Of a stretch of 62,483 bases of DNA, positions 34,716 to 54,011 are shown piece by piece. The notes under the pieces are model-generated. The model saw only the letters and a program-made list of their open reading frames with translations. It was not told where the DNA came from and did not search any database. A program made the translations under genes and the position numbers. Position 1 is the first letter of the stretch. Each line of letters starts with the position of its first letter. Source of the stretch: Candidatus Woesearchaeota archaeon (GTDB lineage: Archaea > Nanobdellota > Nanobdellia > Woesearchaeales > JAHWHD01); contig JAHWHD010000066.1 in NCBI GenBank assembly GCA_019323525.1, forward strand, positions 1 through 62,483, in the 5' to 3' direction.

Positions 34716-37481
34716 ATGGACGATACTGAACAAAAAAGGCAAAAGCTTGTAAAATCATTTAAAGGGATATTTTCAAAACAGCCTAAGCTACAAGACAGTA
34801 CCACTAAAGACGAGAAAAAGTACACAGAGGACCAGATAGATCTTGAAAAACAAAGACTTGCCCTTATCACGTTTTTCAAAAAATACCCGTCTCTAATAGC
34901 GTATGTAATTCTTGCAATTATTATTTGGTTCGGAAGTTATATCAGGCTTAGGAATCTATGGCTCCTTAAAGACGTAGTTACAGGAAAATATGTACCTCTT
35001 GCTTTAGATCCGCATTCATTCCTAAGATATGCGAAATACATAGTCGAACACGGATTTTTGATGTCGCAGGACATGATGAGGTTCGTACCTGTAGGAAGGA
35101 CAACTGCTGATAACAAGCTTTTATCTTATATCATAGTATATTTATACAAATTTCTCAGCATATTCAGCCCAAACATAACAATCGAATTCGCAGATATTGT
35201 TTATCCGGTTATCGCATTCGCAATCTCGCTAGTGTTCTTTTTCTTGCTTATTAAAAAATTGTTCAATAACAATGTAGCTGTCCTTGCATCCCTGTTCCTT
35301 GCAATTCTGCCAGCTTTCCTGTATAGAACAATGGCAGGTTTCTCTGATAAAGAAGCGCTTGCTATGATATTCATGTTCGCTGCAATGTACTTCTATATAA
35401 GTGCTTGGAAATCAAAGAGCCATACGAGTACAATTACATACGGAGTTCTTGCAGGCGTGCTTACAGGTCTGCTTGGTATGACTTGGGGCGGTGTAAAGTT
35501 CCTATTAATGATAATAGCATTGTTCGGCTTAATCGAATTCCTGCTGCAGAAATTCGAAAAAAAAGACTTTTACATGTACACAGCTTGGTTGATTCCTTCA
35601 ATACTCATGCTAGGTCTTTTAACACCAAGGTATGGAGGAATTCCTGGCCTTGTACGCTCTGTGACATCAGGAGCAGCCATTCTTATATTCGTCCTTGCGC
35701 TTATTGACTATATTCTGTTCAAAATAGATGTGCTAAGGGTAAAAGAAAAACTAGAGAAAAAGATCCCTCTTAGCATTGCAACAGTTCTGATAGGAATCGT
35801 GCTTGGCCTTGTTGTAATCGCCGGCATTATGGGCCCTCAGACACTTGCCACGCAGGTTACAGAACTAAGTAACAACCTATTAAGACCTCTTGGTACAGAT
35901 AGATGGATGCTTACAGTTGCAGAACAGCACCAACCATTCTTTACAGACTGGCAAAGCAATTTCAAAGGCTTCTTCTGGCTTTTCTTCCTAGGTTCTATCT
36001 GGCTATTCTATGAACTTCTTAAGCCGTTAAAGAAACATAAGATCGGACTGACAATTGTATACGCGCTATTCATCTCAGGTTTCATATTCAGCAGGTATTC
36101 AACTTCATCAGTTCTTAACGGAACTAGCGCCCTCTCAAAATTTTTGTACATCGGCTCTTTAGTATTTTTCGGCATAATTATGCTAATTTGGTACTTGCAA
36201 GCGTACTATAAAGATAAAGAACTTTACTCATCAATCCTTACACTTGATAAAGCAGCCATATTCACGCTTATCTGGTTCATTGTAATGGTCATTGCTGCAA
36301 GAGGCGCTATCAGGTTGCTGTTCGTATTCGCACCGATCACCGCAATCCTTGGAGCATACTTCCTTGTGCAGCTATTCAAAACATCTATCAGGTTTAAAGA
36401 TAACCTATACAAAATTGCCGGAGTGGTTATAGTGATAATAATAGCGACGGTATTCATAGTCGGATTCTCAAGAACAACTATGCAACAAGCAAAGTACACA
36501 GGCCCAAGCTACAACCAGCAATGGCAAAAAGCAGGTGCATGGATAAAAGACAACACACCTCTCGATGCAGTGTTCGGACACTGGTGGGATTATGGTTATT
36601 GGGTCCAGACAGGCGGAGAACGTGCAACAATGCTAGATGGAGGTAACTCGATCGTATACTGGAACTATCTCATGGGGCGTCATGGTTTAGGAGCTCAAGA
36701 ACAAAATGAGGCACTTGAACTATTATACGCACACAACGTCAGCCATTTCCTTATAATAAACGATGAGATTGGGAAATATACAGCATACTCGTCTATCGGC
36801 TCTGATAAAGATTATGACAGGTATTCGTGGATAACAACCTTCAGCATGGACCAGTCAAGGACACAAGAGACAAGAAACCAGACAATATACTTTTACCAGG
36901 GAAGCTATGTATTAGATGACGACTTTATATTTAACTCACAAATATTCCCTGCAAGAGAGGCAGGTATTGGCGGAATATTCCTTCCGCTTGAAGACACTTA
37001 TATTATTCAAAACAATGAAACTATAAAAACCCAGACTATAAAACAGCCTATCGCCGGCCTCATATATAAAGGCGCACAGGTCCAAGTGCCTATCGAATGC
37101 CTCTACATAAACGGCAAGTATCTTAGATTCAACGAACCAGGGCTTAAAGGGTGTTTCAGGATCCTTCCTACGCTTAACAGCCAGGGGCAGCTTGAAAATC
37201 CGTTTGGTGCCGGATTATATGTATCAGAAGAAGGCGTTAACGCCCTATGGACTCAGCTCTACCTATTTGAACAGAACAATCCAGAGTACGACACAAGCGC
37301 TTTCAAGCTGGCATACAACGACGAGCAAGGCATGCCTTTCGCAATCTACCAGGGCAGAATCATTGGCCCTATCAAGATATGGGAGATCCAATATCCAGAG
37401 GATTTCACAGTCAGTGAAGAACTGATACACGAATACACAGCAGGAAACGAGCATCTTCCTGATTACTTCTTTGATGTATAA
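34716..37481 (+). CDS. aglB: archaeal oligosaccharyltransferase (STT3 family)
   Basis: The 921-aa protein has a polytopic N-terminal half. The hallmark WWDYGYW motif is present (GHWWDYGYWVQTGG). A first-loop LDPHSF acidic motif and a DK-like INDEIGKY segment are also present. Confidence 0.9.
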   Translation: MDDTEQKRQKLVKSFKGIFSKQPKLQDSTTKDEKKYTEDQIDLEKQRLALITFFKKYPSLIAYVILAIIIWFGSYIRLRNLWLLKDVVTGKYVPLALDPHSFLRYAKYIVEHGFLMSQDMMRFVPVGRTTADNKLLSYIIVYLYKFLSIFSPNITIEFADIVYPVIAFAISLVFFFLLIKKLFNNNVAVLASLFLAILPAFLYRTMAGFSDKEALAMIFMFAAMYFYISAWKSKSHTSTITYGVLAGVLTGLLGMTWGGVKFLLMIIALFGLIEFLLQKFEKKDFYMYTAWLIPSILMLGLLTPRYGGIPGLVRSVTSGAAILIFVLALIDYILFKIDVLRVKEKLEKKIPLSIATVLIGIVLGLVVIAGIMGPQTLATQVTELSNNLLRPLGTDRWMLTVAEQHQPFFTDWQSNFKGFFWLFFLGSIWLFYELLKPLKKHKIGLTIVYALFISGFIFSRYSTSSVLNGTSALSKFLYIGSLVFFGIIMLIWYLQAYYKDKELYSSILTLDKAAIFTLIWFIVMVIAARGAIRLLFVFAPITAILGAYFLVQLFKTSIRFKDNLYKIAGVVIVIIIATVFIVGFSRTTMQQAKYTGPSYNQQWQKAGAWIKDNTPLDAVFGHWWDYGYWVQTGGERATMLDGGNSIVYWNYLMGRHGLGAQEQNEALELLYAHNVSHFLIINDEIGKYTAYSSIGSDKDYDRYSWITTFSMDQSRTQETRNQTIYFYQGSYVLDDDFIFNSQIFPAREAGIGGIFLPLEDTYIIQNNETIKTQTIKQPIAGLIYKGAQVQVPIECLYINGKYLRFNEPGLKGCFRILPTLNSQGQLENPFGAGLYVSEEGVNALWTQLYLFEQNNPEYDTSAFKLAYNDEQGMPFAIYQGRIIGPIKIWEIQYPEDFTVSEELIHEYTAGNEHLPDYFFDV

Positions 37482-37516
37482 AAGCCAGATAACAAAATCA
37501 ATAGGAATTAACTTTT

Positions 37517-38215
37517 TTATTTTTTTTCACAGATAAGGATATCATCAAAACACCAAGAAGGTATAGCGAATAATCCTAGAATCTTATACAGCCAGCCAAA
37601 ATAAGCAGGCCAGAGTTGGGTTAACTGGAAAAGAACAGGTATTGTAACTCCGACCCCTTTAACCTTCTTAATTTTAAAGTGCGTTTTCAACATCTTAATA
37701 TACTCTGCCAAAGGTCTGTCGCCAGGATGATAACTCGGCTTTGCTGTCCTGATTAATCTGCCTGTAAAAAAGAACATAAACCTTGATGAAAGATGGGCCA
37801 GATTAGGTAAAGCAATTATCAGTGTCCCACCAGTTTTCAAAATGCGGTGTAATTCCTTGATTAGTTTTTCTTGATCCTCTAACACCAAATGCTCGATCAC
37901 ATCTAGATTAAGAACAAGATCAAAATGATTGGCCTGAAAACCAGTATTCAGAATATTTCCTTTCTTCACATGTTTTCCTTGGTATTGAATGTCCATTCCT
38001 GAGATATCAAAACCCTTGTCACTATATTTATTGACTAAGAGGCCCTGGCCGCAACCAGCATCGAATATCTTAGCAGTCTTAGATATTTTAGAGAGAAGTT
38101 TATCTATGTACTTCATCTTAGCAACAAATGTATGCCTGTAACTCCATTTTTCAAATGTCCAGTTTGGGTCTATCTTTTTAAGATGCTCGCCTGTAATCCT
38201 ATATTCAGGTTTCAT
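37517..38215 (-). CDS. class I SAM-dependent methyltransferase
   Basis: Motif I IFDAGCGQGLL and post-I DLVLNLDVIEH are present. Length is 232 aa. Confidence 0.75.
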   Translation of the reverse strand: MKPEYRITGEHLKKIDPNWTFEKWSYRHTFVAKMKYIDKLLSKISKTAKIFDAGCGQGLLVNKYSDKGFDISGMDIQYQGKHVKKGNILNTGFQANHFDLVLNLDVIEHLVLEDQEKLIKELHRILKTGGTLIIALPNLAHLSSRFMFFFTGRLIRTAKPSYHPGDRPLAEYIKMLKTHFKIKKVKGVGVTIPVLFQLTQLWPAYFGWLYKILGLFAIPSWCFDDILICEKK

Positions 38216-38329: not shown

Positions 38330-38908
38330 TTACCTGGTTTTCCTCGCAATCACGAACATATTTTTTGCCAAAGGAAAAACCCTGCCGATAAGACTAACTT
38401 TAATTACACTAAAACCATTCTCATTCAGCTGATTTACTAAAGTCTTTTTAGTATAAAAACGAACATGCTCGTGCTCAGGATGGTAATGTTTATTAAAGTT
38501 AAAAACTGCTATAGACAAATTCTTGATAATCCCATGATAAGGAGTTGAAAGGAACAAAGTACCTCCGGACTTTAAAACCCTGTTTAGCTCGCGTAAGAAG
38601 AATTTGGTGTTTACTAGGTGCTCTATTATGTCGCCTGCCCAAACATAATCAAAAGAACTATCTGCAAAAGGTAGTTTTCGGGTAAGGTCATGTTCAACGA
38701 ATTTAATCTTTGGAAAACGATTCTTTGCTTCAATTAAAATCTTTTTATCCACATCTATCCCAACTACATCAAACCCCAATTCGTGAACTTTTTGGCATGT
38801 ATCTCCTCTATTGCAACCTACATCCAAAAACCGGCCTTCTTTATACATTGATAGAGATTTTAACAATAATTTTTCTCTTGCCTCATATACTGGATCCCTT
38901 CCAATCAT
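38330..38908 (-). CDS. class I SAM-dependent methyltransferase
   Basis: Motif I FLDVGCNRGDT, plus FDYVWAGDIIEH and LKSGGTLFLSTP, are present. Length is 192 aa. Confidence 0.75.
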   Translation of the reverse strand: MIGRDPVYEAREKLLLKSLSMYKEGRFLDVGCNRGDTCQKVHELGFDVVGIDVDKKILIEAKNRFPKIKFVEHDLTRKLPFADSSFDYVWAGDIIEHLVNTKFFLRELNRVLKSGGTLFLSTPYHGIIKNLSIAVFNFNKHYHPEHEHVRFYTKKTLVNQLNENGFSVIKVSLIGRVFPLAKNMFVIARKTR

Positions 38909-38912
38909 ACAA

Positions 38913-40148
38913 TCACCTTTTATACCTCAATTTTTTGATAGCATAGACGTTGAGCAGAATCTTAAACAATAGCACGATGGTTATTGCAATAGGCGCTCCG
39001 ACTATACCCAAAACCCTGACTAAAAGAATGCTCAACAAAATACTGACAACCAAAGATAATCCAACATCAATAATTATTATGGTTAAGTAAAACCTTGAGA
39101 AGACGTTCTCTCCTGCAAATATTGAATTCAAGTATGAATAAACGATTAGTAAAGACGAAGCAACCACAAGTGCAATAGGCAAAAATGTGGATTTATATTC
39201 TGCTCCATAAAGTATTGGCACTAAAACATACGCTGCTACCAAGACAGCTAAAGCAAAAGGTGCTAAGAAAAACAACAATTTCTTTAAAGAGGCTCTCAGC
39301 TTATATCTTGTTTGAACAGCTAACGGAATCATAACAACAGGAAAAACATACGCTGTCAATCTGATAACATTTGTTATAGACGAATAAGCAGAGTATAGAC
39401 CTAGACTTGCAAAATCAGTCACATACTTGATAACCAAGCTATCTACAAAACGCAAGGTATAGAAACTTATCTGTACAAGGAGCAAAGACAGCGCCATGTA
39501 AAAGAACGGCTTTCTAGGGAGCTTCAGGGAGACTTTAGGCCAGATCTTAACTAGACGAGGTATTGCGACGATAACGGGTATTACAAGGATTACAGACATG
39601 AAATAAAGGAAATATATGAACTCTACTTTGTAGAGGAACATCACGAGAATGCCCAATATCAGCAGCACCCGATATATTAATGAAAGTGAAGAACCAAAGA
39701 CAAAACTCTTGAAACCGCGAAATATGGAATAGACAAGAAAAAAGAAACTATAGATTAATATATACAGCACAACAGCCAAGTTAATTCCTGGAACATCAGG
39801 GTTCAATGAGGTAAAGTTCGTAAGAATGTATACAACAAGTATAGATATTATTGTAGCAGGGAGCATTATCCAGAACGAGTGTTTTAATCCCTGGTTTAAC
39901 TTAGATGTATCCTCAGCCAGAACCTTAGTAAGTGCATCTGCTGCACCAAACGAAGAGAATATGAACACAAAACTTACTAGATTATAAAAATAAGTAAATA
40001 CACCTAGCTGTTCCTGACCGTACAGCCTAGCTATCAGTACCCTTAGAACAAGTATTGCAATCGATATGAACGCATAGACAAAGAACGTAGGCAATAAGTG
40101 TTTTGAAGTTGCTCCAAGTTTAGATTTAAAATAATCAATGATTTTCAT
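38913..40148 (-). CDS. oligosaccharide/polysaccharide flippase (MOP superfamily, Wzx-like)
   Basis: The 411-aa protein has about 12 predicted TM segments. The N-terminus and overall pattern are typical of the polysaccharide biosynthesis protein family. It sits inside the glycosylation operon. Confidence 0.6.
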   Translation of the reverse strand: MKIIDYFKSKLGATSKHLLPTFFVYAFISIAILVLRVLIARLYGQEQLGVFTYFYNLVSFVFIFSSFGAADALTKVLAEDTSKLNQGLKHSFWIMLPATIISILVVYILTNFTSLNPDVPGINLAVVLYILIYSFFFLVYSIFRGFKSFVFGSSLSLIYRVLLILGILVMFLYKVEFIYFLYFMSVILVIPVIVAIPRLVKIWPKVSLKLPRKPFFYMALSLLLVQISFYTLRFVDSLVIKYVTDFASLGLYSAYSSITNVIRLTAYVFPVVMIPLAVQTRYKLRASLKKLLFFLAPFALAVLVAAYVLVPILYGAEYKSTFLPIALVVASSLLIVYSYLNSIFAGENVFSRFYLTIIIIDVGLSLVVSILLSILLVRVLGIVGAPIAITIVLLFKILLNVYAIKKLRYKR

Positions 40149-40188: not shown

Positions 40189-41121
40189 TTAATAGACCTT
40201 TTCAACTTCATACTGCTTGTTCTTCATATTGCTAAAATAATGCTTAGTCTGTATCTCACTCACAAAACCAAGTGAAAAGAACTGTATTCCTAATATAATA
40301 AACAAAACAGCTGCAAGAAGCAAAGGCCCAACGTTTAAAGGATTTCCTAGAATAAGCAAAGAAACAAACACTTTATACAGAGCTATCAATATACCGATAG
40401 CTAAGGATAGTATGGCCAAAATCCCAAAAAAATGGAATGGCCTTATCGAGAACTTATGCCATAACAATGCACTAAGCATGTCAAAAAAACCTTTTCTAAC
40501 CCTGTTCATGCTGTACTTTGTCTTTCCATACCTGCGCGGATAATGCCTTACCTTAATCTCTTTTATCCTATAACCTTCCCACCTCAGAAGCGTAGGTATA
40601 AACCTGTGCATCTCTCCATAAAGATTTAGATTATCAAAACACGAACGCCTATAGAGTTTAAGTGTACACCCAAGGTCGTGCAGCTTTTCTCCAGTCAATA
40701 ACTTACGAATATTCCTCGCAACTATAGAAGTCATCCTTTTTGAAAAAGAATCCCTCCTGTTATACCTCCATCCTGAGATTACATCATAGCCGCAATTCTC
40801 AGCTAATCTTAACATTCTTGGAATATCTTCAGGCGAATTCTGAAGATCTCCATCCATTGTAATCACATACTTTCCTTTTGCATGCCTTATACCTGCATCG
40901 AGAGCAGGCGTCTGTCCATAGTTCCTTTTAAACTTGACCAGCTTGATAAAAGAAAATCTCCTTTTCATGGCAAGAATAGCTTTAACAGAACTATCGCTGC
41001 TACCGTCATCCACAAACACAACCTCATAATCCTCTTTCCCCAGATACTCCACTATAGCTTCAACTAAAGGTTTGATGTTCCTTTCTTCATTATAGATAGG
41101 AATAACTATCGAAAAAAGCAT
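40189..41121 (-). CDS. GT2 polyprenol-phosphate glycosyltransferase (DPM1/GtrB/ArnC-like, two C-terminal TM)
   Basis: MLFSIVIPIYNEERNI, VFVDDGSSDSS and the DGDLQN DxD motif are present. A C-terminal TM pair is also present. Length is 310 aa. Confidence 0.8.
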   Translation of the reverse strand: MLFSIVIPIYNEERNIKPLVEAIVEYLGKEDYEVVFVDDGSSDSSVKAILAMKRRFSFIKLVKFKRNYGQTPALDAGIRHAKGKYVITMDGDLQNSPEDIPRMLRLAENCGYDVISGWRYNRRDSFSKRMTSIVARNIRKLLTGEKLHDLGCTLKLYRRSCFDNLNLYGEMHRFIPTLLRWEGYRIKEIKVRHYPRRYGKTKYSMNRVRKGFFDMLSALLWHKFSIRPFHFFGILAILSLAIGILIALYKVFVSLLILGNPLNVGPLLLAAVLFIILGIQFFSLGFVSEIQTKHYFSNMKNKQYEVEKVY

Positions 41122-41155: not shown

Positions 41156-41177
41156 CTTTTTATAGATTTCTATAGTC
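41156..41177. repeat. 22-nt exact direct repeat, copy 1 (CTTTTTATAGATTTCTATAGTC)
   Basis: It is identical to 41960-41981. It lies just beyond the stop of the 253-aa methyltransferase gene. On the minus strand it reads TIEIYKK in frame after that stop. Confidence 0.85.
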
Positions 41178-41938
41178 TAGGCTTTTCGTCCAATTAATGT
41201 CCAAGAATTGTTATTGACCCTATAAATCTGAACATCCCTAAGCCCTTTATTTTTAAATAGACCCAGAGCTTGCTCCATCTTCCAATAATTAGCTATCCTT
41301 GGAATCAACTGGTCAAAGACTATTGAACGAACATGCCAAAACCTAAATTTAGATAATTGCTTAAGATACGGATGTTTCTGAGGCAAAAGTTTAAGATATA
41401 AACAGAAAGGCAATGCAAGTAAAAAACTGATAAAAGAAGTAAGCCTAAGCGGCAGTTTGCTAGTGAGTTGCCTTATCGGATTTATGTATTGAACTATCCA
41501 TTCATTGTTCTCATATCCATAGACCCAGATAAGAACAGTCCCGCCTTTCTTAACAGCTTTAACAAGATTTTTTATAGCTAGATGAGGGTTTTCTAAATGA
41601 TGAATCACACCTATAGAGAATGCAATGTCAAAATGATCTTCATAGTCAATATCGTAAATCGACTGAAACCTAACCTCTGCGTTCTTGAAAGTAGCGAGAT
41701 TTCTTTTTGCAACAGCAACAGTCCTTCTATCAAAATCAAAACCCAAAACATGCTTAGCACCATATTTTAAAGGCCAAAAGCTATTTCTGCCAATGCCACA
41801 ACCTGCATCAAGAACAGACGTTCCAGAAAAATCAGACTGCTTTAAAGGATAAACCCATTTAAGAAACTGACCTTCATATTCAGGGATTATTTTTGAGTAC
41901 TTATTCCACTCATAACCAAATCTCTCAGTTGAAGCCAT
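41177..41938 (-). CDS. class I SAM-dependent methyltransferase
   Basis: Motif I VLDAGCGIGRNS, plus FDIAFSIGVIHH and KKGGTVLIWVY, are present. Length is 253 aa. Confidence 0.75.
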   Translation of the reverse strand: MASTERFGYEWNKYSKIIPEYEGQFLKWVYPLKQSDFSGTSVLDAGCGIGRNSFWPLKYGAKHVLGFDFDRRTVAVAKRNLATFKNAEVRFQSIYDIDYEDHFDIAFSIGVIHHLENPHLAIKNLVKAVKKGGTVLIWVYGYENNEWIVQYINPIRQLTSKLPLRLTSFISFLLALPFCLYLKLLPQKHPYLKQLSKFRFWHVRSIVFDQLIPRIANYWKMEQALGLFKNKGLRDVQIYRVNNNSWTLIGRKA

Positions 41939-41953: not shown

Positions 41954-43531
41954 CTAAGACTTTTTATAGATTTCTATAGTCGGAGATACAGGATATCCTT
42001 CAAAAGTTCTGCTAAGTGAGGTATAGAAGTCCTGGTTAAAGAAGTTAGACCTAAAAGTCTTTATAAGTGTATAGCCCATATCGCCTTTTCTAAAATCTTG
42101 ATACTCTTTTGTATAAATCTTCCAATCATCATGCTCTGAAGTAAAAATAATAAATTCTGGCTCATTCTCATTTAGCCAATCGGTATCTAACTTAATCCAA
42201 GGGATTATCTCATAAAACTCAGAAGATATCTTTGGAGAATAAAATTCAGGGTCGTTCCCAATTCTAGCTCCCTCGGGAATATTCTTATAGATCCAATCAG
42301 CTGCGACATCCCTAGTATCATTTGTATAACGGGCAGTTGTGCTTATTGCAAAGATTAGAGTATAAACAATAACAATTGCCAACAAGATATTCCATAACTT
42401 ACTCTTCTTCTCAGCAAAAAACCTCGCGCCCAAAATTAAAAATACAGGAATGATTGGTAACATCAACCTGATATAAGGTTTTGCCCATCCTCCAACATAA
42501 AGAAAATATGCTAAAAAAAATGCTAATAACAAAATGTCATACTTTGACCTTTTCTTGAAAGCGTAAAAAAAACCAGGGAGAACAGCCAGATAAAGCAGTA
42601 TGCCCATGCTGAAAGGAAACGTCGCCAATATCTTAAAAATATAAGGTGAATTAAACGGAACATTACCAGACACTGCTGTATAACCAGAAGTATACTGCGT
42701 CATGTAAGCATAGAACTGTGCAAAATTTGCAAAAAAACTAAGATTTGTAATGAAATAAATCACCAACACGACCCCAATCGCAATAAAGATATTCATGTCA
42801 AAGACCGACTTTAAAAAGAACTTAAGCCTTTTCTCATGCCCCTTGCTTTTATAGAAATGGTGAAGCACATGTGCAAGTATCAAAACAAGTAAAGCAATCC
42901 AGCCAGTATGCTTCATCCCCATAGCGAATACAGCGCTTAAACCAGCAAGTATGTACCACTTAAAGTTAGCATTATCAATAATGTATAATGAAAAGAGTAA
43001 AGTAAGAGCAATACCTGCAAGAACAGGGATATCATTGTACATGTAATGACTGTGCCAAATATGTATCGGTGTGATTGCTAAAAGAAAAGCTGCAATATAA
43101 CCTGCTTTCTTGCTATGCACTTTTTTTCCGATAAAAAAAACCGCGACAACAGTAATGAGACTCATCATAATCCCAAACATTCTACCTGCAGCATACATGC
43201 TTTGAAGCGATGCAGCTCCGGTTGGCACATTTGACCCGAACAAACCTCTTAGGATTGAAGCGTATAACTGCGGATGATCAAAAAAATTCCCGAACTTTAT
43301 TCCCTCAAAGACAATCCTGACAAAACCTACCTCATCTGGATGGTAAACCAAACCATGCCCCCATTGCATTGCACCCCAGAACCGAAATGCAAAAGCAATT
43401 ATAAGAATTGCAAAGAGAATCAACCACATTTGGTGCTTAAGAACAAAATCAATAGCTCCATACTGCAAATTATTATCAGAATTTTCGATGTTCTCTTTAT
43501 TATCAGCATTTATTGGATTAGATTCCATCAA
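41954..43531 (-). CDS. GT-C fold membrane glycosyltransferase (ArnT/PMT, GT39/GT83-like)
   Basis: The 525-aa polytopic protein has an early-loop YHPDE motif (GLVYHPDEVGF), as in ArnT/PMT-type enzymes. A soluble C-terminal domain is present. Confidence 0.65.
   Translation of the reverse strand: MMESNPINADNKENIENSDNNLQYGAIDFVLKHQMWLILFAILIIAFAFRFWGAMQWGHGLVYHPDEVGFVRIVFEGIKFGNFFDHPQLYASILRGLFGSNVPTGAASLQSMYAAGRMFGIMMSLITVVAVFFIGKKVHSKKAGYIAAFLLAITPIHIWHSHYMYNDIPVLAGIALTLLFSLYIIDNANFKWYILAGLSAVFAMGMKHTGWIALLVLILAHVLHHFYKSKGHEKRLKFFLKSVFDMNIFIAIGVVLVIYFITNLSFFANFAQFYAYMTQYTSGYTAVSGNVPFNSPYIFKILATFPFSMGILLYLAVLPGFFYAFKKRSKYDILLLAFFLAYFLYVGGWAKPYIRLMLPIIPVFLILGARFFAEKKSKLWNILLAIVIVYTLIFAISTTARYTNDTRDVAADWIYKNIPEGARIGNDPEFYSPKISSEFYEIIPWIKLDTDWLNENEPEFIIFTSEHDDWKIYTKEYQDFRKGDMGYTLIKTFRSNFFNQDFYTSLSRTFEGYPVSPTIEIYKKS
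41960..41981. repeat. 22-nt exact direct repeat, copy 2
   Basis: It encodes the C-terminus (PTIEIYKKS) of the 525-aa GT-C gene. Confidence 0.85.
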
Positions 43532-45887: not shown

Positions 45888-46369
45888 CCTAATCTGCCAG
45901 CATATATTGATTTTTTATACTTCTTCTGAAGTTCAGGCCACTGCACAAAAAACAGATTGCAATACGGATAGATCAATTTACCGCTTATTGACTTATGCTC
46001 AACCCTTACCCAAGACTCGAAAAAGATTAACTTTTTGCTGAAAAAAACCTTAGCAACAAAAAACAAAGGCAATATAAGTGAAGGACCGCATCCTAAAAGA
46101 ACCTTTGCCCTGCTCTTTCTTAATATCCTAAAACTATCAATAGTCGCAGGAATCATATTAAGTATAATCTTGAATATGTTATTGTCTTTCATTAGCCTAG
46201 GATTTTTCATTATAAATATTGGACCTCTATCTTTGACTTTTGGAGCCGATGTTTTGTCATCATGACCAACAACGAACTCATAATTATACTTATTGCCTAG
46301 CTTTTCCAGTAACCTAAGCATCTGGTTAGTGTGTCCGCCCATCCCCAAAACAACCAGGATTGTCTTCAT
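45884..46369 (-). CDS. Alg14-like glycosyltransferase partner subunit
   Basis: The 161-aa protein contains VLGMGGHTNQML, LLGCGPSLILP and FFESWVRVEHKSISGKLIYPYCNLFFVQWPEL. This matches the Alg14 family pattern. It overlaps the Alg13-like gene by 4 nt. Confidence 0.75.
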   Translation of the reverse strand: MKTILVVLGMGGHTNQMLRLLEKLGNKYNYEFVVGHDDKTSAPKVKDRGPIFIMKNPRLMKDNNIFKIILNMIPATIDSFRILRKSRAKVLLGCGPSLILPLFFVAKVFFSKKLIFFESWVRVEHKSISGKLIYPYCNLFFVQWPELQKKYKKSIYAGRLG

Positions 46370-47352
46370 TCTATAGGTTTTCCCTCTCCTTCGATACTGA
46401 ACTTTGATTCACGTAATTTGAGCAGGCTTTTTACCTTGGATAAAGGAATCTTATAGTAATACATGAGAACAATAGCGTAAATATAAGGCATGAGTGTACC
46501 AAAAACACGGGCAACAAGCAACAGCGATATAGCTGCCTCGGCCGGAACCCCTATGATTGAATAAAGGAACAAAACAGAAAAATCCATTGCACCGACTCCT
46601 GCTGGAAGAAACGACAACAAACCAAGAACTGTACTAACACCCAATATTGCAATAACACTAAATAGTGAAACATCGACCCCCATACCCATAGCAAATACCC
46701 ACTGAACAGCCCCTTCAAGCGACCAAGTCAAGATACTTAAGACAACAACCAATATCAAAGTCCAGAAATGGCCTCCGAACTTAAGGTCGCGAAGATGTTT
46801 TGCAATCATCTCAAACCTCTTAGGAATTATCCGCACTATCAACCGTGGGTATCTTAATAAGAATATGAGGATAACAGTCAACACAATTATCAAAGTGAGG
46901 AGCGCGTTCAATCTTGCATCTTGTACAACAAATATTGCAAAGAGAACACCAAAACCAGTAAGAACAAATAAATCAATCAACCTTTCAAATATCATGATAC
47001 TCATCGAAATGCTCAATCTTATTCCTTTTCTATAGAGAAGGTATATCTTTGAAGCTTCGCCCAACCTTCCAGGAGTTACCATTGCAACACAGATGCCAAA
47101 CATTTGTATCAATGCAGAGTTTCTGAAGTTTAACTTGTGGTCAAAATACTTTGTCACAAACTTAAACCTGATTATTTTCACAAGAATGCTTGCCACCATC
47201 ACAAAAAAAGCTGCAATAAGAAAAAACAGATTGCTATTAAGGAAAAGGTCATAGGCCTTAAGCCAGTCAATCTTACTCAACATGTAACCCAATCCTAAAA
47301 AGAATAAAATGCTGACAATAATAAGAGCAACCTTATATTTAGCAATCTTCAT
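46366..47352 (-). CDS. UPF0104/MprF-type flippase-like integral membrane protein
   Basis: The 328-aa protein has about 8 TM segments. The N-terminal pattern (KIDWLKAYDLFLNSNLFFLIAAFFVMVASILVKIIRFKF) is typical of the lysyl-PG-synthase TM-region family, which is often paired with GT2 genes. Confidence 0.5.
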   Translation of the reverse strand: MKIAKYKVALIIVSILFFLGLGYMLSKIDWLKAYDLFLNSNLFFLIAAFFVMVASILVKIIRFKFVTKYFDHKLNFRNSALIQMFGICVAMVTPGRLGEASKIYLLYRKGIRLSISMSIMIFERLIDLFVLTGFGVLFAIFVVQDARLNALLTLIIVLTVILIFLLRYPRLIVRIIPKRFEMIAKHLRDLKFGGHFWTLILVVVLSILTWSLEGAVQWVFAMGMGVDVSLFSVIAILGVSTVLGLLSFLPAGVGAMDFSVLFLYSIIGVPAEAAISLLLVARVFGTLMPYIYAIVLMYYYKIPLSKVKSLLKLRESKFSIEGEGKPIE

Positions 47353-47405
47353 GGAGAGATATTTATGTTGGATATTTTAAATACTTTGTGTTTTCATATT
47401 AGAAA

Positions 47406-47416
47406 GTTATATATAT
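47406..47416 (+). promoter_or_regulatory. TATA box candidate in the divergent promoter region
   Basis: GTTATATATAT lies between the divergent glycosylation operons. Confidence 0.3.
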
Positions 47417-47481
47417 AGATAGCTCATCAGCTCAGACAGGTGGTTTTTATAGAAGAAAAAAAAGAAGAGCGATCTAAAGTG

Positions 47482-49077
47482 ATGAAATTATTTAAAAACC
47501 GATATACCTGGTTTTTTATACTTATCTTAATATTTGCAATCTTCACAAGAGCCAGGTTTCAGTTCACAGACAGTATCTGGAATGATGAAGGCATAAATAT
47601 GTGGAACGGGTATGCAATTACCCAAGGAGAGATTTTTGACCAGGAGATTCTAAGCGAGGGACTAGCGCCAAAGATCCTGATTGCATTCTTCACACTTTTC
47701 ACAGGAAGCTTTAATGCAGTCCGGCTTATGAGCCTTACTTTCTCTCTTCTAGGCATAATCTTTATCTTCTTGCTCGGAAAAGAGGTGAAGGATGAACTTA
47801 CTGGCTTAATTGCTGCAATTCTGCTGACAACACACCACCTTTACTGGTATATTGGAGCAAAAGGCATACTCGATGTGCCAATATCTGCAATGTTTATTAT
47901 CACTGCATATGCTTTTCTAAAGATGGAGCATTCCAACGAAAAGTTATGGAGTATCGCCACAGGCCTACTTATTATAATCTCAATGTTTACAAAAAGACCT
48001 GGCGTTTTACTTTTGATATCAATCATAATCTATTTTGTAATAACTAGAAAAAAACTAATTTTTAAGGACAAAAAAGTCAGATACTGTCTAGGCATTCCAA
48101 TTGGATTCTTAGTAATCGGAGACATAATTTTTTATGCCCTCTTCAGAAGTTCTATGCTTAAAGGACTTGCAGTGTATCTCGGATCTATCAGAGGAATAGT
48201 AGACCAACCGTTCAACTTCACATCGATATTATTTACATTCATTCTGAACCCATGGGTAATTGTGTTCTTAGTGATTGGAATATTATTCATCCTATTCTAT
48301 AGAAAAAAAGAGCAGATATTTCTCTTGCTGTGGTTTGTAATATTCCTTGCATTCTTTGAAATAAATGTAGCAGGTCAAACAATTCCCAGGTATCTAGTTC
48401 CGCTAGTTCCTGCAGCTCTGCTTATCGCAGGCTTTGCGCTCAGTGAAATCAATGATCTTGTAAAGGCATTCACTAAAAAGAAAATAGTCTGGCTTATTGT
48501 TATTATAGCAATACTAATCTCAATACCTTTTTACAAAGAAGGGGTAGCATTGCATGAAAGCAAATCATATACATATTCTGGGTACCAAGAAGCTGCATCA
48601 TGGATTCTCAGAAATGCAGAAGAAAATGCAATACTATTTGCAGGATCTCCAAGGACAATGCGCGGCTTAACAAGATGGCAGTATTACATAGGTGGACCAG
48701 GAGGAACTGAAGATGGAAGACTTTACTATCTACGGGGCCCGAAGTACCTCGATAATAGAACCGCTTTTGAGAAAGATGTCGAACTTAATGCTGAATCAGG
48801 GATCCCAATATATCTCGAAATTGATATGTGGGAGTATACGCAGCCAAGCTGGTACTATCCTCTAAGTCAAGATAGTATAGATTATTTCATAAGCCAAGGA
48901 TTCGAACCAGTTTATGTTGTACAAAGGGAGCTTCCTACACAGCAAGGCATAGAAAAAGCTCCAGTGATATTGATTTTGAAACACTCAGGGATAATTGAAA
49001 AAACAGATACATTTAATAATACAGAATATAGTAATCCATTTGAAGATGTACCTGAGCATAGTAATTCCAGCCTATAA
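47482..49077 (+). CDS. GT-C fold membrane glycosyltransferase (ArnT/PMT-like)
   Basis: This polytopic protein has a soluble C-terminal domain. I prefer the ATG at 47482 (MKLFKNRYTWFFILILIF). The track uses GTG 47440, which lies at or before the predicted TSS. Confidence 0.6.
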   Translation: MKLFKNRYTWFFILILIFAIFTRARFQFTDSIWNDEGINMWNGYAITQGEIFDQEILSEGLAPKILIAFFTLFTGSFNAVRLMSLTFSLLGIIFIFLLGKEVKDELTGLIAAILLTTHHLYWYIGAKGILDVPISAMFIITAYAFLKMEHSNEKLWSIATGLLIIISMFTKRPGVLLLISIIIYFVITRKKLIFKDKKVRYCLGIPIGFLVIGDIIFYALFRSSMLKGLAVYLGSIRGIVDQPFNFTSILFTFILNPWVIVFLVIGILFILFYRKKEQIFLLLWFVIFLAFFEINVAGQTIPRYLVPLVPAALLIAGFALSEINDLVKAFTKKKIVWLIVIIAILISIPFYKEGVALHESKSYTYSGYQEAASWILRNAEENAILFAGSPRTMRGLTRWQYYIGGPGGTEDGRLYYLRGPKYLDNRTAFEKDVELNAESGIPIYLEIDMWEYTQPSWYYPLSQDSIDYFISQGFEPVYVVQRELPTQQGIEKAPVILILKHSGIIEKTDTFNNTEYSNPFEDVPEHSNSSL

Positions 49078-49762
49078 CGAAGAAAAACGGATCATTAAAA
49101 GTCTGGACAAGATTCTCAAGTTCTTGAAAAATAAAGCATACAAATGGGAGATCATCGTTGTTAGCGATGGCAGCAAAGACCACACTGTTGACATTGTTAG
49201 AAAGATAAAAAACAAAAATGTTTCTGTTCTTAGCTATAAGAAAAACAAAGGCAAAGGTTTTGCTGTCAGAAAAGGCATGATGAAAGCAAAAGGAAAAATA
49301 ATCCTATTCTCTGATGCAGATCTATCTACACCCATCAAAGAGATTGACAGGTTCATCCCATATCTTGAGAAAGGTTATGATATAGTTATAGGCTCAAGAA
49401 ACCAGAAAGACAGCAATATTAAGATTCCACAACCGATACATAGAAAATTGGTTGGAAAAATGTTCCAGTTTATAGTGGCTAGCGTGGCATTGAGGGGCGT
49501 TAAAGACAGCCAATGCGGTTTCAAGGCATTCACTCATAGAGCAGCAAAAAAGATATTTAACCTGCAGAAACTTAATGGTTTTAGTTTTGATGTTGAAGCC
49601 CTGTATCTTGCAAAAAATCTCGGTTTCAGGATTAAAGAAGTGGGGGTTACATGGATTAACAGTGAAGCGTCAAAGGTAAACCCATTAAAAGATTCAGTCC
49701 GGATGTTGAAAGACACATTAAAGATTAAAAATCTCCACAAGAACTTCTTTAAAAGTAAGTAG
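49046..49762 (+). CDS. GT2 dolichyl-phosphate hexosyltransferase (Alg5/AglK-like)
   Basis: MYLSIVIPAYNEEKRI, IIVVSDGSKDHT and the DADLSTP DxD motif are present. QCGFKAF and FSFDVEALYLAKNLGFRIKEVGVTW are also present. Confidence 0.75.
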   Translation: MYLSIVIPAYNEEKRIIKSLDKILKFLKNKAYKWEIIVVSDGSKDHTVDIVRKIKNKNVSVLSYKKNKGKGFAVRKGMMKAKGKIILFSDADLSTPIKEIDRFIPYLEKGYDIVIGSRNQKDSNIKIPQPIHRKLVGKMFQFIVASVALRGVKDSQCGFKAFTHRAAKKIFNLQKLNGFSFDVEALYLAKNLGFRIKEVGVTWINSEASKVNPLKDSVRMLKDTLKIKNLHKNFFKSK

Positions 49763-49800: not shown

Positions 49801-50733
49801 ATGAAGACAATTCTAGTAACAGGCGGAGCAGGGTTTATAGGTTCTCATCTATGCGAAAAACTGCTTAGCAAAGGCTGCAATGTAATATGTGTGGATAATT
49901 TCTTTACAGGGAATAAAAGAAACATTGGGCATCTTATGGACAACCCTAATTTTGAACTGATTAGGCACGACATCACAAGACCTTTATGGGTCGAATGCGA
50001 CCAAATATACAATCTTGCATGCCCTGCAGCACCAGTACACTACCAATACAACCCTATTAAGACAATAAAATGCGGAACTGTTGGTATGGTAAACATGCTG
50101 GGTCTTGCAAAAAGGTTAAAGGCAAGGATACTCCAAGCATCAACTTCTGAGATATACGGCACGCCATTAGAGCATCCGCAAACAGAATCATATTGGGGCA
50201 ATGTAAACCCGATTGGAATTAGAAGCTGTTACGATGAAGGTAAGAGAGTCGCAGAATGCCTTTGCATGGACTATCACAGGCAGAACAGTGTAGACATCAG
50301 GATAATAAGAATATTCAACACATACGGTCCAAGAGTGGCATTAAATGATGGGAGAGTAGTCTCTAACTTCATAATCCAAGCACTGAAGAATGAACCTATC
50401 ACAGTTTATGGCGAAGGCAACCAGACAAGAAGCTTCTGTTATATCTCCGATCTCGTCAGGGGCATGATTGCAATGATGGAAAAAGATAATTTCATTGGGC
50501 CTGTTAATTTAGGCAACCCGCAAGAATTCACGATACTTGAACTTGCAAAAAAGATTATTGAACTTACTGGTAGCAGCAGCGAAATCGTACACAAGGAACT
50601 TCCTAAAGATGACCCTACAAGAAGAAAACCAGATATCTCACTTGCAAAACAAAAACTTAACTGGGAACCTGTAGTTCCGATAGACGAAGGCCTTAAGCAT
50701 ACAATAGAATATTTTAAGGAAGTTCTAAAATGA
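49801..50733 (+). CDS. uxs: UDP-glucuronate decarboxylase (UDP-xylose synthase)
   Basis: The protein starts [22 protein letters not shown], followed by [18 protein letters not shown]...[19 protein letters not shown] and the YDEGKR catalytic YxxxK are present. This is the classic UXS signature. Confidence 0.8.
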
Positions 50734-51434
50734 TATCATTGTTCATACCGATGTATAACGAAGAACATGTTATAGAACAAAGCATACCGAAAGTACTGGA
50801 ATTTCTAAGGACAGTCCCAAAAGACATCAAGCTGATAATGCTAGACGATGGTTCAACAGACAGGACACCTGAGCTTGCAAAGTCATTAACCGAGAAGTAC
50901 GATAAACTATATTACCAAAGACACAATGGACCTAGCAGAAGGGAGAACCTTGCGCAGGCAATGGCGCAACAAGACTCTGATATTATTATGTTCATGGACA
51001 TGGACCTTTCTACAGACTTGTGTCATATCCCTGAACTGATTACACAAATTGAGAACGGTTACGATATTGCTACAGGCAGCAGACATGTTAAAGGTTCTAA
51101 GGTGAAAAGAAATTTCTCAAGGTACTTTATCAGCCATGGTTTCAAGATTTTTATTAAACTATATTTTGGCTCGAAAATAAATGATCATGAATGCGGGTTT
51201 AAAGCCTTTAAAAAGGAAGTAATCAAAGATCTTGTCAATGAACTTGGATATGACCATAAGAAAGAGAGAAAAATGTTCTGGGACACTGAGATGTTTCTTA
51301 GAGCTCAGAGAAAAGGCTACAGGATCAAGGAGATACCTATTAGATGGACAGAAGGCAAGAAATCTGCTCTAAGAATTAGAACAGAGTTAAGTATGCTTCC
51401 TTATATTCTAAGACTAAGAAAAAGGCTAGGGTAA
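50730..51434 (+). CDS. GT2 glycosyltransferase (dolichyl-phosphate hexosyltransferase-like)
   Basis: [30 protein letters not shown] and [10 protein letters not shown] are present. Length is 234 aa. Confidence 0.7.
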
Positions 51435-51627: not shown

Positions 51628-52329
51628 ATGGAGAAACTGTCTCAACTTAAAAAGCATTTAAACAAATCCATTCCTGAAGAATTAAGGAGAAACATGGGCG
51701 CCATCAACCCCTATTTAGTACCGATCTATGGGAGAATCGTATACTATAAAAGGCTGAAATTCTGTTTAAATGCAATCAAAAAATTATCTAGACTGCCTAA
51801 AGAATCTGCATTCAATTTCGTGGATGTTGGCTGTGGTTTTGGTATATTCATGCGCATAGTTGGAAAGGAATATCCTAATGCAAAAATATATGGGGTAGAC
51901 CTTCGCGACGAAGAGCAATTAAAGTATGGCTACGATATAGTCAACAATAAAAACGCATTATTCATAAGAGCAGATGCATTAAATCTTCCGCTTAAAGAAA
52001 AATCATTTGATATTGTTCTCACAACCGACGTATTAGAGCATGTTAATGATCCTATAAAAGGGCTAGACGAACTATCAAGAATCATGAAAGATAACTCATT
52101 GCTAGTCATACTCGTACCTACTGAGCTTTTTCTATTCAAACTTTTAAGAAGAATGTTCGGAAAAAGAAGGTTCCATGCTCAGTATCACTGGATTGGAAAC
52201 ATCAAGAACGTCAAGGAGTTTGAAAAAGTGCTAAAGACAAGGTTCAAAGTGATACAAAGAAGATTCATACCATTCCCATTTCTAAGAGGTTTGCTTAATT
52301 ACGATCTTATGTACGTATGCAGAAAATGA
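51628..52329 (+). CDS. class I SAM-dependent methyltransferase
   Basis: Motif I FVDVGCGFGIF and FDIVLTTDVLEHV are present. Length is 233 aa. Confidence 0.75.
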   Translation: MEKLSQLKKHLNKSIPEELRRNMGAINPYLVPIYGRIVYYKRLKFCLNAIKKLSRLPKESAFNFVDVGCGFGIFMRIVGKEYPNAKIYGVDLRDEEQLKYGYDIVNNKNALFIRADALNLPLKEKSFDIVLTTDVLEHVNDPIKGLDELSRIMKDNSLLVILVPTELFLFKLLRRMFGKRRFHAQYHWIGNIKNVKEFEKVLKTRFKVIQRRFIPFPFLRGLLNYDLMYVCRK

Positions 52330-54011
52330 AAAAATCAACAATAATACTCATTATAATTATAGTGGCCAGTATCCTTGTCAAGATTTCTGGGATAAACCAA
52401 CCGCTATATGACGACGAAACAAACTCTGTTGAATCAGTCTTTAATCCAGGAGATTTGTATACTGTAAACCCAATAAGTAAACATCCGCATCCACCATTTG
52501 CACCATGGATGTATCTTTTCACAGGCGCGTTACTTGGAGCAGAGGTTTGGGTGTTTAGGTTAGTTCCCCTCATATTCTCCATAGCAAGTATGATCTTGAT
52601 ATTTGTTATTGTTAAAAGATACTACTCTGAAAGATCTGCTTTATGGTCCACAGCACTCTATGGTCTATGCTTCTATCCTGTGCTTGCATCGCTACAGACC
52701 GACGACGCGTCTATCACAATAACATTCTTCCTTCTCACAACGCTGTTTTATCTAAGATTTAGAGAAAATGAAAAGAAAAGATACTTAATTCCAACTGGAA
52801 TCTTTTTTGGGATATCTTTACTCTCTAAATACACCAGCGTATTTTTATTTATTATAATAATAATCCATTCATTTATCTCAAAGACAGAAGGAATCAAGTT
52901 CAAATCAATATTAAGATTATTCAATCCAAGAAACATTCTCCGAACCTTCATAGAGGTTATAATTATCGGAATAATCGCAGCGGCAATATTTTCAATGTAC
53001 CCAATATTTGCACCAGAGATATTTAGAGCTACTATCGGACATTCATCGCAGTACTTCGGCCTGAACATATCCCTTATGGCTCTAGCCATGCTTTTATTCT
53101 GGGCAACCTCTTTACTGTTGATTCCGGCCCTAATACAAATTTTAAAGTTCAGAAAAAAAGATTCCTTCTGGACAACCTGGGCTGTCGTTATATTTATTAT
53201 AGGCATATTCCTGCTAAGCGGCCGCGGCCAAGGGTCGTTCCTTGTCGGAGGAATTGCAGAGTATAGTAGGTATATGATGATCATCATCCCTTCATTATCT
53301 GTTCTATCTGGCCTTTATATCTCAAGCATCAGGTTCAATAAAAGGATACTTTTGTTCATTGGTATAGTTACAGGAACATTGCTTGCAGTATTCTATTACC
53401 TCAACTACAACTTCATCGCAATTGTTCCCAGAGAGTTCAGCATTTATCTTAAACTTATTAAAGAATTCATGTGGAATTTCACGTTCAGCTATACTACAAG
53501 TTCAGGTAATCTCCTGGGAGTCAACTTTTTGGTTCTTGTAATTGCATACGCAGTATCAATAGTGTTCCTGATTACATATTTCTATGGAGTTAAAAGAAAC
53601 CCAGGAGCCATGATACTTAGCCTAATGATCCTGCTGAGTGCGGGGTTTGCAGTAAACATCTTCCTTGTCAGCGAGTATGTGGGTCCTGTAACAAGTTTAG
53701 ATGTTAATAAAGCGACTTGGGAAATGATTGAATTTGTTAAAGATTACAGGCATGATCTCAACCTTTACTCTAATGACGAAGGACTGTTATTGTTAGCCAA
53801 CGACTTCAGAGTTGAAACTGATGATAACAACTATCATCTAGGAGTTTATTGTGACAACTGTCATTTAATTGATATCGAAAAGAACTCATTAGTTGCACTC
53901 ATGAACTTTCCTCCACAGGATAAAAAAACCTGGCAACTGGTAGATGGTTGCGTATTGATAAAAAACACATACTCAAAAGGAATCAAACTAGGATACCTAT
54001 ACCTTTGCTGA
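52317..54011 (+). CDS. GT-C fold membrane glycosyltransferase (ArnT/PMT-like)
   Basis: The 564-aa polytopic protein has an early-loop YDDETN acidic motif. A soluble C-terminal domain is present. Confidence 0.6.
   Translation: MQKMKKSTIILIIIIVASILVKISGINQPLYDDETNSVESVFNPGDLYTVNPISKHPHPPFAPWMYLFTGALLGAEVWVFRLVPLIFSIASMILIFVIVKRYYSERSALWSTALYGLCFYPVLASLQTDDASITITFFLLTTLFYLRFRENEKKRYLIPTGIFFGISLLSKYTSVFLFIIIIIHSFISKTEGIKFKSILRLFNPRNILRTFIEVIIIGIIAAAIFSMYPIFAPEIFRATIGHSSQYFGLNISLMALAMLLFWATSLLLIPALIQILKFRKKDSFWTTWAVVIFIIGIFLLSGRGQGSFLVGGIAEYSRYMMIIIPSLSVLSGLYISSIRFNKRILLFIGIVTGTLLAVFYYLNYNFIAIVPREFSIYLKLIKEFMWNFTFSYTTSSGNLLGVNFLVLVIAYAVSIVFLITYFYGVKRNPGAMILSLMILLSAGFAVNIFLVSEYVGPVTSLDVNKATWEMIEFVKDYRHDLNLYSNDEGLLLLANDFRVETDDNNYHLGVYCDNCHLIDIEKNSLVALMNFPPQDKKTWQLVDGCVLIKNTYSKGIKLGYLYLC

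Follow-up and report, generated by a model that had tools for sequence, protein, structure and literature searches.

The window analysed here is the whole 62,483-nt contig JAHWHD010000066.1 (contig C43 in our numbering) from the genome of a Candidatus Woesearchaeota archaeon, and the system in question is a glycan gene island at positions 34716-54011 that begins with aglB, the gene for the oligosaccharyltransferase AglB. The island carries, besides aglB, three further glycosyltransferases (GTs) of the GT-C type (GTC1 to GTC3) and three family 2 glycosyltransferases (GT2a to GT2c), and its 17 genes are packed with nearly no spacing. The host genome, referred to as G000, comprises 1.14 Mb on 108 contigs and is 89% complete; among its relatives, G001 belongs to the same genus (94% complete) and G002 to a sister genus. 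Pfam, NCBIfam and PDB sequence searches back the family assignment of nearly all genes, and they agree with an earlier sequence-only reading that had listed AglB, three GT-C enzymes at the positions given below, an Alg13/Alg14-like pair, a Wzx-type flippase, a UPF0104 protein, a UDP-xylose synthase, an AsnB-type amidotransferase and four methyltransferases. In order of position, the features of the island are:

34716-37481, plus strand: AglB, STT3-type oligosaccharyltransferase, 921 aa (PF02516, 60.2 bits, cut-off 24.5)
37517-38215, minus strand: MT1, class I S-adenosylmethionine (SAM) methyltransferase (Methyltransf_23/_11)
38330-38908, minus strand: MT2, class I SAM methyltransferase (Methyltransf_11, 74 bits)
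38913-40148, minus strand: flippase candidate of the Wzx type, MOP family (PF01943, 40.5 bits, cut-off 28.2; about 11 hydrophobic segments)
40189-41121, minus strand: GT2a, ArnC/GtrB-like polyprenyl-phosphate sugar synthase with two C-terminal membrane helices (PF00535, 122 bits)
41177-41938, minus strand: MT3, class I methyltransferase wedged between GTC1 and GT2a (Methyltransf_11, 60 bits)
41954-43531, minus strand: GTC1, PMT-like GT-C glycosyltransferase, 525 aa (PMT_2, 46 bits; PMT, PF02366, 30.1 bits, cut-off 22.7)
43528-45414, minus strand: AsnB-type glutamine amidotransferase (PF00733, 302 bits; TIGR01536, 496 bits)
45417-45887, minus strand: Alg13-like half of a split GT-B enzyme, PssE/Cps14G type (PF04101, 58 bits; NF041548, 142.6 bits, cut-off 120)
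45884-46369, minus strand: Alg14-like half of the split GT-B enzyme, PssD/Cps14F type (PF08660, 104 bits; NF041549, 135.1 bits, cut-off 110)
46366-47352, minus strand: UPF0104/MprF-flippase-like membrane protein (PF03706, 144 bits; TIGR00374)
47353-47481: AT-rich divergent intergenic region of 129 bp with TATA-like runs, from direct reading of the sequence
47482-49077, plus strand: GTC2, GT-C glycosyltransferase, 531 aa (PMT_2, 56 bits)
49046-49762, plus strand: GT2b, DPM1/DPMS-like polyprenyl-phosphate sugar synthase (PF00535, 112 bits)
49801-50733, plus strand: UDP-glucuronate decarboxylase, that is UDP-xylose synthase (human UXS1, E 4e-130, 437 bits, residues 2-309)
50730-51434, plus strand: GT2c, DPM1/DPMS-like polyprenyl-phosphate sugar synthase (DPMS 5MLZ, E 5e-19, then ArnC)
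51628-52329, plus strand: MT4, class I methyltransferase between GT2c and GTC3 (Methyltransf_11, 65 bits)
52317-54011, plus strand: GTC3, ArnT-like GT-C glycosyltransferase, 564 aa (PMT_2, 73.5 bits)

The aglB gene is followed by a convergent operon on the minus strand, which is transcribed in the order UPF0104/MprF-like gene, Alg14-like gene, Alg13-like gene, AsnB, GTC1, MT3, GT2a, Wzx, MT2 and MT1. On the other side of the divergent intergenic region, which presumably holds the promoters of both operons, the plus-strand series runs GTC2, GT2b, UDP-xylose synthase, GT2c, MT4 and GTC3. The GC content of the island is 0.367, compared with 0.394 for the genome, and tRNA and Rfam scans of the window returned no match.

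The GT-C enzymes, their GT2 partners and flippase candidates

Since searches of the PDB sequences with the single sequences of GTC1, GTC2 and GTC3 gave no match, family profiles and fold models were needed to place these proteins. All three exceed the PMT_2 cut-off of 26.1 bits. The profile of a 40-member GTC1 family matches yeast Pmt1 (E 2e-11), Pmt4 (E 3e-9) and AfAglB of A. fulgidus (E 7e-8); GTC1 carries HPDEVG at residue 64, with D66 and E67 kept in at least 90% of the 40 aligned homologues, and its wider family comprises 5984 representative clusters at E <= 1e-3. A Pfam search of GTC1 found no MIR domain, and bacterial PMTs likewise lack it. For GTC2, the AlphaFold 2 (AF2) model (pLDDT 87) matches exclusively GT-C enzymes in Foldseek, led by STT3 (E 2e-9) and followed by ArnT, ALG12, AglB, PglB and ALG9 at template-modelling (TM) scores of 0.5-0.64; W33 and D35 are invariant across 21 homologues, the WWDXG motif is absent, and relatives of the protein are annotated at NCBI as 'glycosyltransferase family 39'. 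The family profile of GTC3 matches the ArnT structure 5EZM at E 3e-5, its AF2 model (pLDDT 73) likewise finds GT-C enzymes only, with ArnT as the best match (E 9e-10), and D33 and E34 are invariant in the family alignment. No NCBIfam model, and hence no ArnT equivalog, matched GTC3 at E <= 0.001, so that its likeness to ArnT is one of fold level only; to our knowledge, archaea lack lipid A.

The acidic motif of the first loop is thus invariant in the GTC2 and GTC3 families and at least 90% conserved in the GTC1 alignment. Together with the PMT_2 scores and the GT-C-only folds of GTC2 and GTC3, this confirms the earlier view that the three polytopic proteins are GT-C enzymes. None of the three matched the ALG profiles PF05208, PF03901, PF03155 and PF04922 at E <= 0.01; membership of the ALG families was rejected, as the profile matches are to PMT_2, PMT and STT3. 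The three proteins share at most 24% identity, and GTC3 can barely be aligned to the other two. They are old, separate GT-C lineages, and on the same grounds a recent tandem duplication of one GT-C gene was discarded as an origin of the set.

The closest matches of the three GT2 enzymes are ArnC, DPMS and GtrB, so that all of them resemble enzymes that load a single sugar onto polyprenyl phosphate, as had been supposed. GT2a aligns with ArnC structures over its full length, both C-terminal helices included (E 5e-49), and with GtrB at E 1e-30. GT2b matches the Pyrococcus DPMS 5MLZ (E 7e-20) ahead of GtrB and ArnC, and the best NCBIfam match of GT2c is a haloarchaeal Dol-P (dolichol phosphate) hexose transferase at 69 bits, under its cut-off. 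The NCBIfam equivalog cut-offs for ArnC and ArnT were reached by neither counterpart in the island. A whole-genome PF00535 search places three GT2 genes on the window contig, one of them membrane-anchored, which corrects an earlier count of three plus one.

Each GT2 gene lies beside one GT-C gene, in the arrangements GTC1-MT3-GT2a, GTC2-GT2b (with an overlap of 32 nt) and GT2c-MT4-GTC3, at 0-870 bp from its partner on the same strand, and stop and start codons overlap at several junctions. The same association was found in the relatives. About 0.65 Mb was fetched around their GT-C genes, and GT-C and DPM1/ArnC-like GT2 open reading frames (ORFs) were located with jackhmmer. Of 79 non-AglB GT-C ORFs from 24 related genomes, a DPM1/ArnC-like GT2 is found no farther than 100 bp away for 33%, 1 kb for 53% and 3 kb for 77%. 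The nearest kb of flanking sequence contains 0.32 GT2 genes per kb, about 3.5 times the 0.07-0.09 per kb at 2-6 kb, and the genome-wide density in G000 is 0.006 per kb. Proximity and density together make the pair of GT2 and GT-C a recurrent unit in this order, and because the GT2s are synthase-like and each stands beside one GT-C, glycosylation on the outer face of the membrane, fed by lipid-linked monosaccharides, is the best reading of the locus, in agreement with what had been proposed for it.

Contigs C35 and C90 of G000 carry additional GT-C genes, which here too have GT2s next to them. At C35, 20-5898 (L025), an ArnC-like GT2 that is 41% identical to GT2a and a 636-aa PMT_2 GT-C are accompanied by a capsule-synthesis-like protein, a Wzx/MATE flippase and then two GT4 genes; contig C35 as a whole carries two DPM1-like GT2s beyond those of the island. 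A second, all-membrane module at C90, 7572-15096 (L026) is conserved across the order, with counterparts in G007_C45, G009_C6, G020_C3, G023_C1, G026_C77 and G033_C4. It comprises two STT3/PMT-like GT-C-type proteins (about 505 and 470 aa), a processive GT2 of 411 aa resembling chitin and cellulose synthases, a small ORF and a large GT-C, which in G000 has 903 aa, matches both PMT_2 and the Alg9-like Glyco_transf_22 (PF03901) and is unrelated to GTC1-3.

Two proteins of the island are candidates for carrying a lipid-linked sugar across the membrane. In the regions fetched from relatives, each of the four UPF0104 homologues has a GT-C gene as its immediate neighbour and a GT2 beyond that, and the trio of UPF0104, GT-C and GT2 recurs in G002, G011 and G028. 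The UPF0104 protein, which is the divergent partner of GTC2, is therefore a candidate Dol-P-sugar flippase judged by its gene context. In other archaea, arCOG00899 (UPF0104) stands beside the PMT/STT3-like arCOG00563 and the AglD-like GT2 arCOG00897, as in MJ_1079/MJ_1080 (Makarova, Galperin, Koonin 2015, PMC5898192); the roles in flipping and glycosylation given to this neighbourhood are a comparative-genomic prediction made without experiment, and a UPF0104 domain also forms the C-terminus of Haloferax AglD (PMC5898192). By analogy with the Wzx-like AglR, which is implicated in the flipping of Dol-P-mannose in Haloferax (PMC3871713), the Wzx protein is a second flippase candidate for a lipid-linked monosaccharide. 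A whole-genome search for the GtrA family (PF04138) gave nothing above the cut-off.

Methyltransferases, cytoplasmic enzymes and the conserved flank

Two of the four methyltransferases, MT3 and MT4, are inserted into GT2/GT-C modules, and MT4 overlaps GTC3 by 13 nt. The sandwich of GT-C, methyltransferase and GT2 is also present in G022 and G033, and a methyltransferase abuts a GT-C gene in G007 and G013. Overall, a methyltransferase lies within 100 bp of 8 of the 79 GT-C genes of the relatives, a modest local enrichment of 2-3 fold. In G002 (L012:18670-19941), a single protein of about 420 aa joins a DPM1-like GT2 domain (residues 28-186) to a class I SAM methyltransferase domain (272-430), and its gene lies immediately upstream of a GTC3-like GT-C. 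Among the candidates scored, 4113 proteins belong to this fusion family at E <= 1e-10. The best 120 members (P0184-P0303) all have both domains, share about 50-60% identity and come from Chloroflexi, Omnitrophota, Binatia, Methanosarcinales, Nanoarchaeia and Woesearchaeota; their annotations are generic, reading only 'glycosyltransferase' or 'dolichol-phosphate mannosyltransferase'. Of the three members whose neighbours were examined, the one from Methanosarcinales is accompanied by a PMT_2 GT-C and a Wzx/MATE protein, that from Omnitrophota overlaps a YfhO-type GT-C, and that from Chloroflexi follows a small EamA/TMEM234-like membrane protein, a 4-helix transporter. The methyltransferases of the window are only distant homologues of the fused domain.

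The occurrence of a fused GT2 and methyltransferase beside GT-C genes suggests that methylation may act on the lipid-linked monosaccharide. We tentatively put forward, with more doubt than confidence, that MT3 and MT4 could be a fourth working part of their modules, adding a methyl group to the polyprenyl-phosphate sugar while it still faces the cytoplasm; the GT-C would then install an already methylated cap outside. Deformylation and epimerisation of lipid-linked sugars are already known (PMC11127046) and offer a comparison for methylation at the lipid level. No description of methyltransferase-containing three-component systems was found in a limited literature library, which makes this a weak negative.

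The UDP-xylose synthase gene overlaps GT2c by 4 nt, and a UDP-sugar dehydrogenase is encoded elsewhere in the genome. Given this translational coupling, the GT2c-MT4-GTC3 module probably delivers a pentose, and by analogy it looks like a pentose-delivering counterpart of the Arn pathway.

Other genes of the minus-strand operon point to a glycan assembled in the cytoplasm. The Alg13-like and Alg14-like genes overlap by 4 nt, and the Alg14-like protein has a GMGGH motif at residue 9; the pair is homologous to Alg13/Alg14 but, by profile score, is of the bacterial PssDE/Cps14FG type. Split homologues from DPANN archaea fall into the EpsE/EpsF group, interspersed with bacteria (Meyer et al. 2022). 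In a related island on a JGI metagenome contig (L067:1376-4263), Alg13 and Alg14 are separated by a four-gene insertion in which two genes encode AlbA_2/HATPase_c_4 (Schlafen-like) proteins, for which reason it may be a defence or mobile insertion. The AsnB-type protein is closest to amidotransferases associated with exopolysaccharide (EPS), reaching 506 bits against the EPS-type TIGR03108, under its cut-off, and probably amidates a sugar acid, judging from its family. Elongating cytoplasmic GTs are few in the genome, amounting to three GT4 enzymes and the Alg13/14 pair. Across the whole 89%-complete genome, no priming enzyme of the Alg7/AglH type (PF00953) or the WbaP type (PF02397) scored above the cut-offs, so that a DPM1-like GT2 probably begins the lipid-linked glycan used by AglB on dolichol phosphate. 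Haloferax AglJ, which is DPM1-like, starts its glycan on dolichol phosphate in this way.

In AglB itself, the catalytic motifs are intact as read from the translation, namely LDPHSF (residue 97, external loop), SDKEA (210, DxE) and WWDYG (623). The DK-type motif is non-canonical (DEIGK at residue 683, with DxxxK spacing against the canonical DxxK), and matches to TIGR04154 (E 2e-35) and to the core domain PF21436 (21 bits against a cut-off of 23) lie under the respective cut-offs. AglB matches at E <= 0.001 occur in 28 of 30 relatives, with close full-length orthologues in about seven. In two secreted surface proteins near the island, N-X-S/T sequons are fewer than expected from composition, at 0 against 4.3 (220-2052) and 2 against 5.9 (27964-29772), which are small numbers. 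The island is flanked by the following features:

32941-33987, plus strand: geranylgeranyl-reductase-family flavoprotein (TIGR02032, 168 bits, cut-off 158.8)
33998-34714, plus strand: conserved 238-aa protein with one membrane helix and no Pfam or NCBIfam match
54096-62373, plus strand: nonulosonic-acid pathway, comprising dehydratase, aminotransferase, acetyltransferase, NeuB, PseG-like protein, PIG-L, WbqC and CMP-transferase (Pfam)

The flavoprotein is a candidate polyprenol or dolichol reductase by its family, and its gene is syntenic with aglB in G001 (66% identity) and G002 (41%). The 238-aa protein, whose gene ends with a gap of 1 nt immediately upstream of aglB, has homologues adjoining AglB in G001 (67% identity), G002 (43%) and G015 (30%) and adjoining an STT3-like gene in G018; from this context, it could be an accessory subunit of AglB. 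Both upstream genes fit a dolichol-based system. Directly after GTC3, the nonulosonic-acid pathway, with a B12-radical SAM gene on the minus strand inside it, prolongs the glycan island up to the end of the window.

While the block from orfC to aglB is syntenic in G001 and G002, these genomes carry different genes after aglB: G001 gave no homologue of GTC1, GTC2 or GTC3 at E <= 1e-10, and in G002 the conserved block is followed by seven GT-C genes in 43 kb. The island is accessory and follows the pattern of a variable, serotype-like glycan locus with a conserved flank as its anchor. The layout recurs on a JGI metagenome contig, where Wzx, Alg13, Alg14 and a methyltransferase are followed divergently by GT-C, GT2 and GT-C. 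Per genome, 40 members of the order give 0-10 PMT_2 matches (median 4), and 13 of the 40 equal or exceed G000. In view of these counts and of clusters of similar or larger size in relatives, the island is not exceptional for its lineage, and the earlier description of it as exceptionally dense does not hold. A limited literature library contained nothing relevant on GT-C expansions in DPANN archaea.

Proposed outer-face glycosylation, rival readings and known systems

On the basis of the observed gene families, motifs, GT2/GT-C pairing and its recurrence in relatives, we propose, with a probability of roughly 0.7, that the locus is a two-layer surface-glycan island downstream of a conserved aglB, made up of a cytoplasmic branch and three three-component modules acting on the outer face, in which (i) a glycan would be started on dolichol phosphate, probably by a DPM1-like GT2, extended by the split enzyme of the PssD/E-Cps14F/G type and tailored by AsnB and methyltransferases, with a possible contribution of the nonulosonic-acid genes; (ii) Wzx would flip this glycan, and AglB would move it to Asn residues of surface proteins; (iii) GT2a, GT2b and GT2c would each make a polyprenyl-phosphate monosaccharide, which in two of the modules may be methylated by MT3 or MT4; (iv) the UPF0104 protein or Wzx would carry the lipid-linked sugar across the membrane; and (v) the adjacent GTC1, GTC2 or GTC3 would attach it outside the cell. 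What we infer beyond these observations is which sugars are donated, which protein flips them, what accepts them (N-glycan, Ser/Thr, lipid-linked oligosaccharide or lipid) and in what order the steps occur.

The nearest experimental precedent is the outer-face sugar addition by AglD, AglR and AglS of Haloferax (PMC3871713). In Haloferax volcanii, as proposed here, a DPM1-like GT2 charges dolichol phosphate and a polytopic enzyme related to PMTs adds the sugar outside, a Wzx-like protein is the candidate for flipping, and the methyltransferase AglP and sugar-nucleotide enzymes are clustered with aglB (PMC3871713; PMC4973528). The systems differ in that Haloferax has one such module and the island three, with GT-Cs from three distant lineages (at most 24% identity), and in that the UPF0104 domain, fused to the GT2 in AglD, is a separate protein here. 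The MprF-like gene at 46366-47352 with the divergent GTC2 and GT2b resembles the neighbourhood described by Makarova et al. in 2015, a likeness drawn by family, the arCOG identifiers being those of the paper (PMC5898192). With the AglD/AglR/AglS precedent and this 2015 description (PMC3871713; PMC5898192), the claim that the layout departs from the usual archaeal Agl assembly is not supported: the locus is real, ordinary for its lineage, and of an arrangement already predicted in the literature.

Bacterial three-component periplasmic systems, including a pentofuranose system, likewise encode a GT2, a flippase and a GT-C together (PMC11127046). The likeness extends to GtrA/GtrB/GtrC, ArnC/ArnE-F/ArnT, CsbB/GtcA/YfhO and PgfS/PgfM, all of which combine a GT2 synthase with a flippase and a GT-C, and for the Arn pathway it includes the full-length alignment of GT2a with ArnC, the proximity of GTC3 to ArnT and the UDP-glucuronate decarboxylase within the module, which recalls the decarboxylase domain of ArnA. 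In contrast to the bacterial systems, the carrier is presumably dolichol, the host being an archaeon, no flippase of the GtrA or SMR type is present, and two of the three modules carry an inserted methyltransferase; unlike in the Arn pathway, the module has no ArnB-, ArnD- or formyltransferase-like gene. The split enzyme shares with PssD/PssE, Cps14F/Cps14G (EpsE/EpsF) and Alg14/Alg13 the organisation of a MurG-like GT-B enzyme in two small adjacent genes and the GGH loop. It differs from Alg13/14 in that no Alg7/AglH was found to supply Dol-PP-GlcNAc, and a chitobiose product is not attributed to it.

The sequence-only reading had considered the layout close to that of the eukaryotic endoplasmic reticulum (ER). 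What stands of this comparison is the logic by which a Dol-P-sugar is made inside, flipped and used by a GT-C outside; the GT-Cs themselves are of PMT_2, PMT and ArnT type, with none of the ALG type, the split GT-B is of the PssDE/Cps14FG type and Alg7 was not found. A stricter version, in which the GT-Cs would extend a dolichol-linked oligosaccharide outside before its en bloc transfer by AglB, as ALG3/9/12/6/8/10 do in the ER lumen, appears quite improbable to us. It would account for the clustering of the GT-Cs with AglB and for the small number of cytoplasmic elongating GTs, the GTC2 model superposes equally well on ALG12/ALG9 and on STT3/ArnT (TM 0.57-0.64), and Lombard 2016 argued that the lumenal GTs have their closest kin among prokaryotic proteins with a PMT domain (PMC4973528). 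Yet the profile searches found no ALG family member among the three, the only characterised archaeal case, AglS, acts after transfer to the protein (PMC3871713), the bacterial type of the Alg13/14 pair and the missing Alg7 (in an 89%-complete genome) point elsewhere, and GT-Cs that are accessory and absent from the same-genus G001 do not behave like a core assembly line.

A further reading, which we regard as unlikely, would have the locus mainly produce a glycoconjugate that is not borne by protein, for instance a polysaccharide resembling capsule or EPS, or decorated membrane lipids, with AglB a mere conserved neighbour at the edge of a variable locus. The Alg13/14 pair passing the PssE/Cps14G and PssD/Cps14F cut-offs, the kinship of AsnB with EPS-associated enzymes, the presence of Wzx, the ArnT-like nature of GTC3 (ArnT modifies lipid), adjacent surface proteins without sequon enrichment and a content downstream of AglB that varies like O-antigen loci would all suit it. 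However, neither a Wzy polymerase nor a chain-length regulator, export machinery or a priming phosphoglycosyltransferase turned up, and AglB, whose motifs are intact, needs a lipid-linked glycan; the island is the chief glycan locus found next to it. GTC1, moreover, is closest to protein O-mannosyltransferases; O-mannosylation was undescribed in archaea as of Lombard 2016 (PMC4973528).

Several observations also weigh against the two-layer scheme that we prefer. The bacterial type of the split pair and the EPS type of AsnB suit a polysaccharide equally with an N-glycan. Small flippases of the GtrA or SMR type are absent from the genome, which makes the assignment of a flippase indirect. If a GT2 is needed as primer, at least one of the island GT2s or a GT2 of contig C35 would serve in that role and not as a donor synthase for a GT-C, and the neat 3:3 pairing of GT2s with GT-Cs may be partly coincidental if the genome is truly without Alg7 and WbaP. 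The confidence of the GTC3 model is only moderate (pLDDT 73), with TM-scores to ArnT of about 0.5. Finally, sequons are not in excess in the secreted proteins encoded nearby (0 to 5 observed, 1.8 to 5.9 expected), a result that lends no support for or against N-glycosylation.

In summary, the value of the locus lies in one more well-annotated example of a predicted arrangement, and new biochemistry could come only from the methyltransferase-coupled modules and the large fusion family. The island and the nonulosonic-acid pathway together take up about 2.4% of a 1.14-Mb genome at one locus and provide a concrete parts list for the building and variation of the surface coat in a host-dependent archaeon with a tiny genome. 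Outer-face GT-C steps seem to outnumber cytoplasmic elongating GTs in this genome and across the order. Such GT-C-rich outer-face glycosylation is of interest for host attachment by DPANN archaea and for their evasion of viruses, and the abundance of GT-Cs bears on the debate over the origin of the eukaryotic lumenal glycosyltransferases.

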